64,000 nucleotides of DNA. It comes from Candidatus Poribacteria bacterium. GTDB lineage: Bacteria > Poribacteria > WGA-4E > WGA-3G. The number at the start of each line of letters is the position of its first letter. Positions within the stretch are counted from its first letter, which is position 1. Shown here piece after piece: positions 49,253 through 54,049 of this stretch. Where the stretch lies: contig CBDANF010000003.1 of assembly GCA_965197475.1 (NCBI GenBank), positions 1 to 64,000 of the forward strand, given 5' to 3'. The notes beneath the pieces are model-generated. The model was not told the origin of the DNA. It searched no databases and worked only from the letters and a program-made list of their open reading frames with translations. The position numbers and the translations under genes were made by a program.

Positions 49253-49750
49253 TCAATTTGTATCTGTTGATTTATCCTTTTTTGGATTGGCGATCTCGAA
49301 CTGATGGATGGCGTGTCTATAGATAAGTACCATCTGGTTATTTACATTCATTGTAAAGTTATATTCATTGTATTCTACCGGTATGCCGTAAAGGATATGT
49401 CCGTTTCGGAGTGTCACCTTGACGTTTTTCTGTGCCAACTTGCGCATGGGGCGTTTCCCAATGATTTTCGGTCGCTTATGTGGGTCTTTATCGGTTCGGA
49501 GTTTTTCAGCTTCAACTTCTTTGTTTATCCGCAAAGCGTTTCCTAATTCATCCGCGGATTCTGGCATCAGGCAGAAGAGAATATCTACTTTGGGGAACGA
49601 GCCTGTAGATGTCCGGATCTCATATTTCTCTATTTCTGTGATATTTACCTTTTTGATACCGTCATAAGTTACGAGCAGCACGGGACCTTGAAACCTATTG
49701 AGCAAGGTTGTGGTTTCAAGGTTTTGTGTTGGACCGTTCTGTTGCGTCAT
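49253..49750 (-). CDS. Hypothetical protein with C-terminal Hfq/Sm-like domain
   Basis: VKVTLRNG..LYG...YNEY...LIYRHAI resembles Hfq Sm1/Sm2 (YKHAI); GGAGG RBS. Confidence 0.6.
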   Translation of the reverse strand: MTQQNGPTQNLETTTLLNRFQGPVLLVTYDGIKKVNITEIEKYEIRTSTGSFPKVDILFCLMPESADELGNALRINKEVEAEKLRTDKDPHKRPKIIGKRPMRKLAQKNVKVTLRNGHILYGIPVEYNEYNFTMNVNNQMVLIYRHAIHQFEIANPKKDKSTDTN

Positions 49751-50043
49751 AGGATGGACCTCCAAAATAATAATTTTTGATATTTTACCGTAAATATAAC
49801 TTGATTTGTTAATCTTTGTTTAGACAGTCTACATAACTGATGGACTGCTTTGTGAAATGTCTGAGAGAACTGCACAAAAAGGTGCAAATTTTATACCCGA
49901 TTGCACGGAATTGGGCAGTGAGTTAGACTCACGTTATTACTTATAGTTTGTATCAAATGACCCCATGAGTTATACTATTAGTATTCGTTAAACTAACGAG
50001 TAGATGTCCTCGGATCCCCGATAATCTATTCATGGAGGTCAAT

Positions 50044-50844
50044 ATGAACCGCAAGAAGGATACCGCTTACGGTATCACTCGGCTCGAATCCAAGAATGCC
50101 AGAGCCGCGATTATTCAGAAGATTTCAGCAGACTTTAATCTCATGCCTCTCGTTGCTGAAGCCTACTATAAACAGATTTCTACCTACTTTGAACAACATG
50201 CCGATGTGCAACTCACATCAGGGCAAATCTGCTACGAGGCAGTCGCCGCTGAGGAACCCGCAGGCAAACACATCGCTTTAGCGAAAAAAGTCTCCTGTCG
50301 ACTCAAACTCAACGATGTTGAAGCCGACCTTGAAGTTTTAGCGACTTATGGGCTCGCAGGACTCAGACGGCATCGGATCCTCCGATTGACCCAAGAAGCT
50401 TATGACCAAGAAGCCTTGCTGAGTTATGAGGATTTGGCGGTGTTATTAACCACCAGTCCTGCCACCGTCAAACGCGACATCCGAGCGTTGAAGCAGTCCG
50501 GCTATTTCGTGATGACGCGCGGGGCGAAACACGACATGGGCCCGGGACTGTCTCATAAGACGCAGATTCTCGAGCTGTACTTCAAAGCATACACCTTCAC
50601 CGAGATTGAGCAAAAGACGAACCACTCCGAACGGGCTGTCTACCGCTACTTGAGGGACTTCACACAAGTTGCCACGCTCCATCATCAAGGGTTCCCTAAC
50701 GCTCAGATACGCCTGATTTCTCATCTCTCTGACCGGTTGATACGCGAGTATCTCTCGCTGTTCAAGGAATATCAACACACCGATCGCATGACCCAACTCC
50801 TTCACCCAGAACCAGAGGACACAAAAAAGGAGGATCTCTCATGA
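50044..50844 (+). CDS. DUF1670 domain protein A
   Basis: RILRLTQEAYDQEALLSYEDLA, TRG..HDMGPGLSHK, HS..AV.RY. Confidence 0.85.
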   Translation: MNRKKDTAYGITRLESKNARAAIIQKISADFNLMPLVAEAYYKQISTYFEQHADVQLTSGQICYEAVAAEEPAGKHIALAKKVSCRLKLNDVEADLEVLATYGLAGLRRHRILRLTQEAYDQEALLSYEDLAVLLTTSPATVKRDIRALKQSGYFVMTRGAKHDMGPGLSHKTQILELYFKAYTFTEIEQKTNHSERAVYRYLRDFTQVATLHHQGFPNAQIRLISHLSDRLIREYLSLFKEYQHTDRMTQLLHPEPEDTKKEDLS

Positions 50845-51725
50845 GCAAACCTCTAACACGCACGCAAATCAACGAGAAGAAATTCAGACGCATCAACGAT
50901 AAATCCCTACGACAGTTGCTTATCCATCGCTTTCTCAATGACTACGGGTATGACAAAGGCGAAGTCACTGCCACCGCCATTGTTGATGATATTCTCAAGA
51001 CCGTTGAAGACTATTTCGTAATTACCCTCCCCTTGGAAAAACTCGCCACCGGTGATCAACTCCCAGATGAGCGTTTCCTAAGTTATGGACAACTCGTTTG
51101 GATGGCCGTCCCTATTGATGAACATCCAGAAAGAGGAAAGTCCATCGTCAAAACTCGGATGAAACCCATCATCCTGACCTACCTCGCCGCAGAGGATATT
51201 GAATCTTTTAGAAACGGTTTCACCTCCCGGCAATTGCGGATCAATCGCTTGGTCCGCTGGTGTCATCAAGCTTATGACCAAGGGGCATTATTGACACAAC
51301 TCGACTTGGCAGTTTTGCTCAATGTCTGCGATGCCGTTGTCTGTGATTATGTTAATGAATGGCAAAAAACCACTGGAGAACTCTTGCCCACCCGTGGCAA
51401 TATCCATGACTTATCGGGGGCTATTACCCATAAGAAAGAGATCATAACCCTCTATCTTCAAGGACATCTCACCCCCAGGATTGCCGCAAAGACCAAACAC
51501 TCTAAGGAGGCAGTTGATAGATACATTCGCGATTATGAGAGCGTCAAAGTCGTTCGCACCGCTACCACAGATATTGATAAAATCTCACAGATCACCCGAC
51601 TTTCTAAACGCGTTATCACTCAATATCTGGACCTGATTCCGCAGCCCCAACTCCAAGCCATAGATGCAAACCTTGCCAATTCAGACTCAAACGATGAAGC
51701 CACTCACCAAGGAGAAGCCCAATGA
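50841..51725 (+). CDS. DUF1670 domain protein B (paralog, ATGA-coupled)
   Basis: AYDQGALLTQLDLA, PTRGNIHDLSGAITHK, HSKEAVDRY. Confidence 0.85.
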   Translation: MSKPLTRTQINEKKFRRINDKSLRQLLIHRFLNDYGYDKGEVTATAIVDDILKTVEDYFVITLPLEKLATGDQLPDERFLSYGQLVWMAVPIDEHPERGKSIVKTRMKPIILTYLAAEDIESFRNGFTSRQLRINRLVRWCHQAYDQGALLTQLDLAVLLNVCDAVVCDYVNEWQKTTGELLPTRGNIHDLSGAITHKKEIITLYLQGHLTPRIAAKTKHSKEAVDRYIRDYESVKVVRTATTDIDKISQITRLSKRVITQYLDLIPQPQLQAIDANLANSDSNDEATHQGEAQ

Positions 51726-51792
51726 GACCCTAATCCTATGTTCCCGACGAACTTTACTTCGCAAAACCGGGGCAGGTGCCTTGAAAATATGG

Positions 51793-51821
51793 TTGACAAC
51801 CGCTACCGGTTTTGCTATACT
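51793..51821 (+). promoter_or_regulatory. Near-consensus sigma70 promoter inside the element's right end
   Basis: TTGACA-17 nt-TATACT. Confidence 0.7.
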
Positions 51822-51952
51822 TTAGACACGTTTATCGCTAAACGCATCATTTCTCAAAGAGGATGCTCGCGATCCCAACGCAACCCACTCATCAACGATC
51901 GCTGGGAAGCCAATGAACATCAGCCTTCCAGCTATCCTATGGTCATTTGATA

Positions 51953-54049
51953 CTATTTTCTTATTAGCATTTTTCTGGTAGCAGTGAACTTGCCTACGGT
52001 TAACGTATAGAAATAGATTCCACTTGCCACAGGTTCACCCACATCATTTCTACCATTCCAATACGCCGCACGGCTGCGACTTTTATAGATACCAGCATCC
52101 TGATGTCCCAATACTAAGGTCTTAACTATTTTACCATTTGCAGCATAGATTGTCAAACTCACCTCAGCAGGTTTAGCAAGATGATAGGGTATCCACGTTT
52201 CTGGATTAAACGGATTCGGATAGTTTGCAAGCAGCTTTGTTTTTTCAGGAGTCAACGATGTTAGAAGCCTCTGGAGATTCGCTATGCCCTTTCGAAAAAC
52301 AATAGAACCGTCGTTTTCTATCTGCGCCTGCGTTATCCATGCTCGTATCATTGCGGGCATTAATTCTTCACTATTTATCACAACAAGATTCATATCAATG
52401 CCACGGTTGGTAATTAATGTCGGAGCAGATGCGGTTGTCTCACCTATATGCTGTGCAACAGCGATGAGGTCTAAGATGCCGATCGTCCCATCGCTGTCCA
52501 CGTCAGCTTGTGGCGTGACGGATGCATCTTTTCCCAAGTATTGTGCCACCTGCATTAGATCTAAAATGCTCACTTGCTCATCCTGATTTACATCCCAAGG
52601 CAAGAACACACGCTCTTCCACAGTGATAACAAAATCAGGAATGCTCAGAGAAATTGTTACCAAGTCACTTGAACCTGCATATAAGTTGGTAAGTGTTACT
52701 TGCGCTTCGCCAATCGCCTTTGCCATAAACGTTACCGACAGCAGCTTGCCTGTGCCGCTTACGCCGTCTCTGCTCAGACTTATCGCGCCGAGTCCGGTGA
52801 TTTTCCCTGCTGTGTTATCAATCGTGCTTTCAAGAAAGAATGTCGTTCTATCATCTTTCTTCAAGAAATCACCTTCGCTCACCTCAACTGCTTCAAGGGC
52901 AGCAGGGTCAAATACAATATTACATAACCATCCCGCTAAATCAGTGGTGTTTTCTACGTTGAGATGTAGTGTAAACGTATCATCAACGCGAACAGGGAGT
53001 TCATCTATAGAAAAAGAGAGATTGGCACTATTCACATCCGATACGGTGATCACAATCTCTGGAATACTCAGAGGAATTGCTACCGACTCGCTTGAATCTG
53101 CATATAGGTTGTTAAGCGTGACTTGTGCTTCGCCAATCGCCTTTGCTACAAATGTCACCGACAACAATCTGCCTGTGCCGCTTCCCCCGTCTCTGCTCCG
53201 GCTTACCGAGCCGAGTCCGGTGATTTTCCCTGCTGTGTTATCAATCGTGCTTTTGAGAAAGATGGTTGTTGCATCGCCTTCTTTCAAGAAATCGCCTTCG
53301 ACCACTTCAACAGCTTCAAACACATTCGGGTCAAACACAATATCACATTGCCAACTGGCTAAGTTGGTGATTTCATCTGCATTTAGATAAAGCGTAAATG
53401 TATCTCCGATGACAACAGATGTCGTATCAATGGAAAAGGAAAATCTGGGATCGCTCTCATCCAATTCGGGTTGCTCTTCCACAGTGATGACAATCTCTGG
53501 AATACTCAGAGTCAGAGGAATTATCTCTAAAACACCCGCCTCTGAGACATTACTCGAACCTGCCTTTAAGTTAGCAAGAGTGACCTGCGCTTCGCCAATC
53601 GCCTTTGCCACAAATGCTACCGACAACAATTTGCCTGTGCCACTAACACCACCTTTGGAAGTTCGTGCCGCGCCGAGATCAGTGATTTTCCCTGCTGTGT
53701 TATCAATTGCGCTTACAAGAAAGTGGGTTTTTCCACTACCTCCTTTCAAGAAGTCGCCTTCAACCACTTCAACTGCTTCAAGCACATTGGGGTCAAATAC
53801 TATATTACATTGCCATCCTGCTAAATCGGTGACGTTTTCTACATTCAGATGCAACGTAAACGTATTGTCAACGTGTACGGGTGTTTCATCTATAGAAAAG
53901 GAGAGTAGTGCTTCTTCAACAGCGGTAGGTTGATTATCGTCAGGGATGTTAACATTTTGTGCCACTATTGTAAGTGGAAACATCAAAAACAACATTGCAC
54001 AAATCCCAAAAGTGTAAACAAAATTATATTTTTCATTAACTATATCCAT
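51953..54049 (-). CDS. Secreted protein: 3x cohesin + dockerin-like + FlgD/T9SS-like C-terminal domain
   Basis: Three LAGWQCNIVFDP..IDNTAGKIT..GTGKLLSV repeats; DVNQD/DVDSDG loops; LANYPNPFNPETWIPY...ASGIYFY. Confidence 0.88.
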   Translation of the reverse strand: MDIVNEKYNFVYTFGICAMLFLMFPLTIVAQNVNIPDDNQPTAVEEALLSFSIDETPVHVDNTFTLHLNVENVTDLAGWQCNIVFDPNVLEAVEVVEGDFLKGGSGKTHFLVSAIDNTAGKITDLGAARTSKGGVSGTGKLLSVAFVAKAIGEAQVTLANLKAGSSNVSEAGVLEIIPLTLSIPEIVITVEEQPELDESDPRFSFSIDTTSVVIGDTFTLYLNADEITNLASWQCDIVFDPNVFEAVEVVEGDFLKEGDATTIFLKSTIDNTAGKITGLGSVSRSRDGGSGTGRLLSVTFVAKAIGEAQVTLNNLYADSSESVAIPLSIPEIVITVSDVNSANLSFSIDELPVRVDDTFTLHLNVENTTDLAGWLCNIVFDPAALEAVEVSEGDFLKKDDRTTFFLESTIDNTAGKITGLGAISLSRDGVSGTGKLLSVTFMAKAIGEAQVTLTNLYAGSSDLVTISLSIPDFVITVEERVFLPWDVNQDEQVSILDLMQVAQYLGKDASVTPQADVDSDGTIGILDLIAVAQHIGETTASAPTLITNRGIDMNLVVINSEELMPAMIRAWITQAQIENDGSIVFRKGIANLQRLLTSLTPEKTKLLANYPNPFNPETWIPYHLAKPAEVSLTIYAANGKIVKTLVLGHQDAGIYKSRSRAAYWNGRNDVGEPVASGIYFYTLTVGKFTATRKMLIRK

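Follow-up and report, generated by a model that had tools for sequence, protein, structure and literature searches.

A right end of two probable layers, a cis-acting DNA end and an outward promoter, in a gene-sparing DUF1670 mobile element of Candidatus Poribacteria

In a Candidatus Poribacteria genome, we analyzed the right, non-coding end of a mobile element with two DUF1670 genes and found that it is best explained as two layers: a recombination end that would act in cis and an outward-facing sigma-70 promoter (P_out) that would read into the left end of the element when the two ends are joined. We put the probability of this reading at roughly 55%. The window referred to below is the whole 64,000-nt stretch analyzed here, and all positions are counted from its first letter. 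The features of the element and its target are as follows.

49941 to 49942, plus strand: left copy of the duplicated target TT, the end of the original Lys and stop of the target gene (TTACTT, reverse complement AAGTAA)
49943 to 49962, plus strand: left terminus ATAG-TTTG and 13-bp terminal inverted repeat (TIR) GTATCAAATGACC (TIR at 49950 to 49962)
49948 to 49976, plus strand: candidate inward promoter TTGTAT-17-TATACT, weak (-35 box matching at 3/6 positions), from direct reading and the left-end alignment
50032 to 50844, plus strand: ORF A, DUF1670 (Pfam PF07900, 1.1e-60)
50841 to 51725, plus strand: ORF B, DUF1670 paralogue (Pfam PF07900, 1.5e-61)
51761 to 51770 and 51806 to 51815, plus strand: 10-bp inverted repeat GCAAAACCGG and CCGGTTTTGC, flanking the -35 box and perfect in the window
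51793 to 51821, plus strand: P_out, with -35 box TTGACA (51793 to 51798), TG (51813 to 51814), and -10 box TATACT (51816 to 51821), 17-nt spacer, from direct reading and a promoter scan
51834 to 51873, plus strand: nested 5' hairpin, ATCGC/GCGAT around stem 1 GCATC/GATGC (51844 to 51848 with 51862 to 51866), main clade only
51869 to 51902, plus strand: stem 2, GCGATC/GATCGC (51869 to 51874 with 51897 to 51902), present here and unconserved
51897 to 51936, plus strand: P3, a subterminal hairpin (GATcGCTGGGA with TTCCAGCtATC) that extends stem 3, with an 18-nt loop containing the near-invariant AATAAACATC
51941 to 51956, plus strand: right TIR GGTCATTTGATAC (51941 to 51953) and terminus CTAT (51953 to 51956)
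51957 to 51958, plus strand: right copy of the duplicated TT
51953 to 54049, minus strand: target gene, encoding a cohesin/dockerin protein of 698 aa with a T9SS C-terminal sorting domain (CTD)

The mobile element spans positions 49943 to 51956 (2014 bp), with ATAG...CTAT termini and a TT on either side, limits that were fixed by empty sites. The window's insertion site is empty in two genomes of the same genus, where it reads CATTACTT/CAAAATAACC (ACTT/CAAAAT, with the slash at the insertion point). Across unique insertion sites, the TT duplication was found on the right side at 74/74 and on the left side at 73/74. The source genome holds 18 full copies, one internally deleted copy, and one short derivative, with sharp ends that are common to the copies; the element thus has the terminal inverted repeat, the target duplication, and the many copies with common ends by which transposon ends are recognized. 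The short derivative (G000:C3:94085-94567) consists of the first ∼300 nt of the element joined to its last ∼155 nt, and its right-end part begins at 51803. Relatives of ORF B were found in 46/176 genomes of the phylum, and homologous proteins at 91% identity carry the source label Candidatus Poribacteria. The true start of ORF A is likely the ATG at 50044, which is preceded by GGAGG.

Some copies in the source genome deserve separate mention. One (G000:C3:434717-436536; L019/L022) lacks ∼232 bp, corresponding to element positions 118 to 349, and with them the start of ORF A. Two others, L002 (G000:C3:843685-848706) and L003 (G000:C2:1159043-1164064), are both 100% identical to the window's copy and share the same 70-nt left flank while their right flanks are unlike, one being a CTD gene end and the other not. 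Recombination between copies, segmental duplication, or an assembly join could possibly have produced this flank pattern.

Insertion leaves the product of the target gene whole. Read on the gene strand, AAG TAA closes the empty site and AA-A TAG the filled one, in which the final A and the TAG come from the element. Because the element end supplies these 4 nt, the target protein retains its final Lys and its stop. In T9SS CTD genes, the insertion point lies between base 2 and base 3 of the last Lys codon. Of 74 unique sites (loci L001 to L103), 15 lie in the loops of REP-like hairpins and 59 elsewhere. At the 59 non-REP sites, the right flank is the antisense end of a CTD gene (with the protein ending YFY.L.AG.F.ATRKMLI.K and stop) in 53, and the left hexamer encodes Lys plus stop likewise in 53. 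The copies at REP-like sites (L064 to L087) come from four genomes (G023, G033, G036, and G021) belonging to two other families and lie in the loop of the hairpin GAAACCGAGTTTT-TT/CTTC-AAAACTCGGTTTC. Counts of this hairpin in intact form were 398, 40, 40, and 26 in the four genomes, compared with 0 in the source genome. Lineages of the element thus differ in target class, some using CTD gene ends and others REP-like hairpin loops.

Two further observations concern the flanks of the window's copy. A promoter-like TTGACA-17-TAAAAT with TG (11/12) lies on the minus strand at 52156 to 52128, in the 3' portion of the CTD gene, and faces the element's right end. Just left of the element, also on the minus strand, a 170-aa ORF (49253 to 49765) has a weak Hfq-domain match (E value 6e-5 and 23 bits, with a Pfam cut-off of 27).

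The region of P_out and the hairpins had been placed, in a preliminary description made from the sequence alone, in the non-coding right end of a DUF1670 element, and both the boundaries given above and the pattern of diversity bear this out. Among the 18 full copies, diversity (pi) at codon positions 1, 2, and 3 was 0.026, 0.028, and 0.138 for ORF A and 0.014, 0.005, and 0.073 for ORF B. For the 233-nt non-coding right end it was 0.017, which is about that of codon positions 1 and 2. Because this value is far below synonymous-site diversity, the region is functional. Apart from a 70-aa reading frame within the right end, which is considered and dismissed below, the two DUF1670 paralogues are the only ORFs in the element.

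P_out, which can be read directly in the sequence as TTGACA-17-TATACT, matches the consensus at 11/12 positions and has a TG ahead of the -10 box, and it therefore has the makeup of an extended -10 sigma-70 promoter; its transcript is predicted to start near 51828. The region contains 8 promoter-like sites, compared with 4.7 ± 2.4 in shuffles, and it is by its conservation that P_out is judged to be more than a chance match. Among 37 distinct autonomous right ends from across the phylum, the promoter matches at least 10/12 positions in 34 and at least 9/12 in 36, the TG is present in all 37, and the spacing is 17 to 18 nt throughout. The distance from the -10 box to the element end is 134 to 136 nt in 32 of these right ends and 102 to 103 nt in the other 5. 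Right ends were also aligned from relatives with ORF B proteins that are 79 to 98% identical (32 sequences); mean column identity was 78%, and the invariant positions were T and G in the -35 box, T, A, A, and T in the -10 box, and the TTG that precedes the latter. The promoter of the preliminary description was therefore upheld. The perfect 10-bp inverted repeat that had been described as overlapping it exists in the window but is not broadly conserved: at least 9/10 positions pair in 8/37 distinct right ends and at least 8/10 in 14/37, and in most copies of the source genome a C>T change that creates G-T makes the repeat imperfect.

This conservation might instead be that of a protein-binding site, that is, a site for the element's own HTH proteins that resembles a sigma-70 promoter and is not transcribed. 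A Pfam Sigma70_r4_2 match in ORF A (1.3e-4, below the cut-off) is in keeping with such a site, and the transcript start is a predicted one. However, the -35 box, the TG, and the -10 box are all kept at a spacing of 17 to 18 nt, which is the recognition signature of RNA polymerase, and, unlike a site used in transposition, this one is dispensable in amplified nonautonomous copies (see below). We give this alternative little credence.

Those nonautonomous copies separate the right end into two parts. A covariance model of the right end has matches in 84/151 genomes, compared with 46/176 genomes for ORF B, and both MITE-like derivatives of the element and its right ends on their own (solo) occur widely. 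We examined 20 right ends (L109 to L128) from genomes in which matches to the model outnumbered those to ORF B, a sample that was hand-picked and not random. The point at which they begin to resemble the window's element is downstream of the -10 box in 16/20, within the spacer in 2/20, and upstream of the -35 box in 2/20, and a 10/12 promoter is present in 2/20. P3 and the TIR, in contrast, are kept in 20/20, and the 16 that start downstream of the -10 box nevertheless retain the last ∼90 to 125 nt. A left end lies 206 to 1437 bp upstream in 7/20 (MITE-like), and the flanks are CTD-like, as judged by eye, in 19/20. One genome has six copies of a single promoter-less architecture at six different CTD gene ends.

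Because these derivatives keep the last ∼90 to 125 nt without the promoter, that stretch would suffice in cis and the promoter would not be needed for being moved; the same pattern of retention suggests that the stretch is required in cis for movement. P3 lies in the part that promoter-less derivatives keep, so a cis role at the DNA level could explain its conservation without any RNA. Since the promoter appears dispensable for mobilization, it would serve expression in autonomous copies, and its distribution suggests that P_out is maintained by, and relevant to, autonomous copies only.

In the two-layer reading, the first layer is the last ∼90 to 125 nt, with a conserved CTCA motif, P3 and its conserved loop, the 13-bp TIR, and CTAT. 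It would act at the DNA level and presumably be bound by both DUF1670 helix-turn-helix proteins. The second layer is the extended -10 promoter P_out, placed 134 to 136 nt from the end and probably firing outward from its predicted start. A scan for a GC-rich hairpin followed by a T run listed no terminator-like site at 51700 to 51960, and with no terminator inside the element the transcript would run across the end. P_out would drive ORFs A and B from a right end that abuts a left end head-to-tail, whether in an excised circle or in a tandem; in the integrated resting state, its transcript would merely be antisense into the flank. Head-to-tail joining should be possible because insertion recreates a target-like CTATTT/C at the right junction. 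Reading across a junction, which the preliminary description had offered as one option, is the most economical role that we can propose for P_out. It is important to note that the left end has its own conserved promoter-like sequence, TTGTAT-17-TAnACT, and therefore P_out would not be strictly needed for expression of ORFs A and B. The element's first 27 nt are invariant or almost so in 33 distinct left ends, and the left-end alignment shows the -10 box as TAnACT in nearly all lineages; this candidate inward promoter is absent from the list given by the consensus promoter scan.

Exact head-to-tail junctions were rare, with 1 in 176 genomes (G052). In that genome, at about position 247725 of contig C1 (L050), a full element lies directly next to the right end, now degenerate, of an older element, with TT between the two. 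The right junction seems to remain open to further insertion. A different element forms head-to-tail arrays in G021 (L129, G021:C4:242165-245190, and a second at G021:C4:493907-495270), with 3 and 2 junctions that are 1.26 to 1.34 kb apart; it has similar termini (ATCG...CCAT) and TT between units, and its cargo is unlike DUF1670 but for a 92-nt match.

Four sponge metatranscriptome runs, all from one study, gave RNA-library contigs that span the complete element, including the right end. Summed contig depth was 44 to 706 across the element's bins and 0 to 18.5 in the flanks, and these contigs show no start, strand, or level. Because the element is multicopy and DNA may have been carried over, this depth does not establish transcription. 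No circle junction (back-joint) was listed among those contigs.

A second reading is that P_out makes a discrete, trans-acting noncoding RNA of ∼130 nt, made up of the hairpins at its 5' end, P3, and a TIR copy, that works with the DUF1670 proteins as a guide, an end mimic, or a regulator; the preliminary description had proposed an RNA of ∼120 nt bound by DUF1670, as a guide or regulator. We consider this unlikely, although several results speak for it. The right end is under constraint and keeps its promoter at a set distance from the terminus, and promoter loss is confined to noncoding copies; promoter-less derivatives would then borrow the RNA from autonomous copies. The predicted fold of 51828 to 51958 (-28.4 kcal/mol; z = -2.04) was equaled by 5/200 shuffles, and its stability is thus marginally above chance.

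Of the three consecutive stems that had been described as making up a hairpin-rich RNA, stems 1 and 2 are both present by direct reading, but only the hairpin built on the third is conserved. Stem 3 (GCTGGGAAGC with GCCTTCCAGC, 51901 to 51932) is itself imperfect, with 8 Watson-Crick pairs, one G-T pair, and one A-C mismatch, and its outer two bases overlap stem 2; it nevertheless forms the core of P3, which single-sequence folds place in every lineage, ending just before the TIR. Stem 1 and the hairpin nested around it belong to the main clade. This 5' hairpin is missing or different in distant lineages and is shortened by a 33-nt deletion in L043 to L047. Stem 2 is not conserved: the 5' arm finds its partner upstream, and the 3' arm is part of P3. 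In stem 2, 68.5% of cells are paired, with two pairs broken in 17/27 and 18/27 sequences, and the three stems together have 76.1% of cells paired. Over 34 distinct sequences, mean z was -2.87 for the 3' domain (P3) and -1.14 for the 5' domain.

Aligned right ends gave a mixed answer on covariation, which had been proposed as the check. RNAalifold found no consensus structure in 32 right ends (-0.16 kcal/mol, 3 pairs). In the main clade alone (32 sequences), 90.3% of cells were paired and no pair (0) was changed on both sides. When 43 distinct right ends were aligned to the covariance model, which was built from the main clade and toward which the alignment therefore leans, 86.4% of cells were paired and the covariation score was 0.132, compared with 0.084 in shuffles, a value reached by 0/500. 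The same model-fitted alignment held 7 pairs changed on both sides against 4.7 expected, a count reached by 46/500 shuffles, so such pairs were no commoner than in shuffles. For P3, 90.6% of cells were paired over 10 pairs in the 43 distinct sequences; for the extended hairpin alone, the values were 79.1% and 4 both-side-changed pairs (reached by 57/500 shuffles). The non-Watson-Crick cells of P3 include 62 G-U and 25 A-C. We take these alignments to suggest one conserved hairpin, P3, with modest compensatory support. The excess of G-U over A-C, together with z values of about -2 to -5 for the 5' hairpin in many main-clade sequences, would fit a functional top-strand RNA and counts against the two-layer reading. 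Against a discrete RNA stand the variation and partial deletion of the 5' third between lineages, the terminator scan given above, and a search of Rfam with positions 49700 to 52300 on both strands, which gave 0 matches at E ≤ 1.

The idea that such an RNA guides the element to its targets was put to three tests. Ungapped comparison of both ends of nine elements with their reconstructed empty sites, on both strands, gave best complementary runs of 5 to 8 nt, which were reached by 12 to 99% of shuffles. Target PWMs (54 CTD and 15 REP sites) scanned over whole elements had no top match in the right end. A likeness of the P3 loop AATAAACATC to the target AATCAACATC, seen by eye, was dropped since the PWM scan found no target-like site there. 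Nor did inspection of the sequences find positions in the right-end RNA that tell REP-targeting from CTD-targeting copies. L048 and L082 are inserted in different targets (a CTD gene end and a REP-like hairpin, respectively), yet their right ends are 92% identical, and the right end of L083, which sits elsewhere, is 99% identical to that of L082. The expectation that loop sequences would covary with the target thus failed, and near-identical right ends occur in different targets. As for a regulator, no duplex with the ORF A leader rose above shuffles in 12 lineages (z from -1.9 to +0.6). A guide is therefore not supported by these comparisons, with pairings of 4 to 6 nt falling below the sensitivity of the tests.

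We also considered that the DUF1670 pair might be a recombinase of a new kind, for which the P_out transcript, an RNA copy of the right end with P3 and the TIR, would be a required cofactor. This seems quite unlikely to us. If it were true, the cofactor RNA could be a scaffold or could use short pairings of 4 to 6 nt to place the element in the last codon or in REP-like loops. The AlphaFold2 model of ORF B, made with 81 aligned relatives, has a mean pLDDT of 86 and is mostly helical with one beta hairpin. Foldseek found no match to this model in the PDB at E ≤ 0.001; its weak partial matches were to wHTH repressors, paired domains, and the Tc3 DNA-binding domain. Sequence searches of PDB chains with ORF A and ORF B found none, a PHROGs search gave just weak matches of ORF A to regulators, nothing useful came from PADLOC or NCBIfam, and tblastn found no match in plasmids. 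Thus, as modeled, the DUF1670 proteins appear to be without a recognizable catalytic fold. H197 and Y228 are invariant in the ORF B alignment. Four proteins of 930 to 952 aa (P0134, P0135, P0140, and P0145) each contain three DUF1670 stretches and are fused forms of the paralogues that are separate in the window. A full-text literature search found no publications on DUF1670 (PF07900, IPR012872), and in the accessible part of the literature on Poribacteria insertion sequences we found no publication on this element.

It is improbable, in our view, that the purpose of P_out is to transcribe the neighboring host gene in antisense and so silence or tune a T9SS cargo gene. The right end does lie head-on against a CTD gene end at 53/59 non-REP sites, with no terminator between P_out and the gene. 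However, the promoter and its distance from the end are unchanged in the lineages that target REP loops (15 unique sites), and insertion otherwise leaves the protein as it was. Finally, the statement that no substantial ORF follows the promoter is not literally true, as a 70-aa ORF (51738 to 51950) overlaps the region, but we reject as hardly credible that the right end encodes this protein: the frame reaches the same end in only 14/37 distinct right ends and is altered in the remaining 23/37 by 1-nt indels, the 33-nt deletion, or other frame changes, its product has no Pfam or NCBIfam match, and it starts upstream of the promoter.

If the two-layer reading holds, P_out is separable from the cis-acting end, being kept by autonomous copies and dropped by amplified derivatives, and this gives a testable view of how the element controls itself. 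Together, the two DUF1670 HTH genes, the TT duplication, the rebuilding of Lys and stop, and the switch to REP loops in sister lineages provide a first functional context for DUF1670. The element is also a natural system of precise, gene-sparing insertion.

A sigma-70 outward promoter within the end of an insertion sequence is a known kind of feature. Outward and junction promoters are known from IS10 (pOUT), from ISAba1- and ISEcp1-type elements, and from the circles of IS911, IS2, and IS30. P_out resembles them as a sigma-70 promoter inside the end that faces out and would read into the next left end. Junction promoters, in contrast, consist of a terminal -35 box that needs the -10 box of the other end, whereas P_out is complete and lies 134 to 136 nt inside; further, unlike for IS911, IS2, and IS30, no circle was observed for this element. 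P_out also differs from the promoter of IS10 RNA-OUT, an antisense regulator, in lying downstream of the ORFs and pointing in the same direction.

The IS110/IS621 bridge RNA and the IS200/IS605 omega-RNA are element-encoded guide RNAs, and the right end described here is like their sources in being the constrained non-coding end of a site-specific element, with a promoter and a hairpin. As in IS621-type elements, some lineages insert in REP-like hairpins. The likeness does not extend to target-complementary loops or an Rfam match, and here the hairpin is kept in promoter-less derivatives. Moreover, the partner of an IS110-type bridge RNA is a DEDD recombinase, while this element has DUF1670 ORFs only, with no PDB fold match, and the omega-RNA overlaps the 3' end of tnpB, while neither ORF here has a TnpB domain.

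Subterminal hairpins or multiple transposase sites are found in the ends of IS200/IS605 elements and in the multisite ends of the Tn7/Mu type. With 13-bp TIRs and a 2-bp duplication, the present element differs from IS200/IS605, and its proteins are without a recognizable catalytic fold. It is like both groups in its asymmetry, in its orientation-specific insertion, and in a terminus-adjacent hairpin or inverted repeat that is probably needed in cis.

Islands and phages that target tRNA and tmRNA genes rebuild the 3' end of the target gene. Unlike in those systems, what is rebuilt here is 4 nt (A plus TAG) at the last Lys codon of a protein gene family, and no integrase is present. Like them, the element carries a replacement gene end and leaves the host gene intact.
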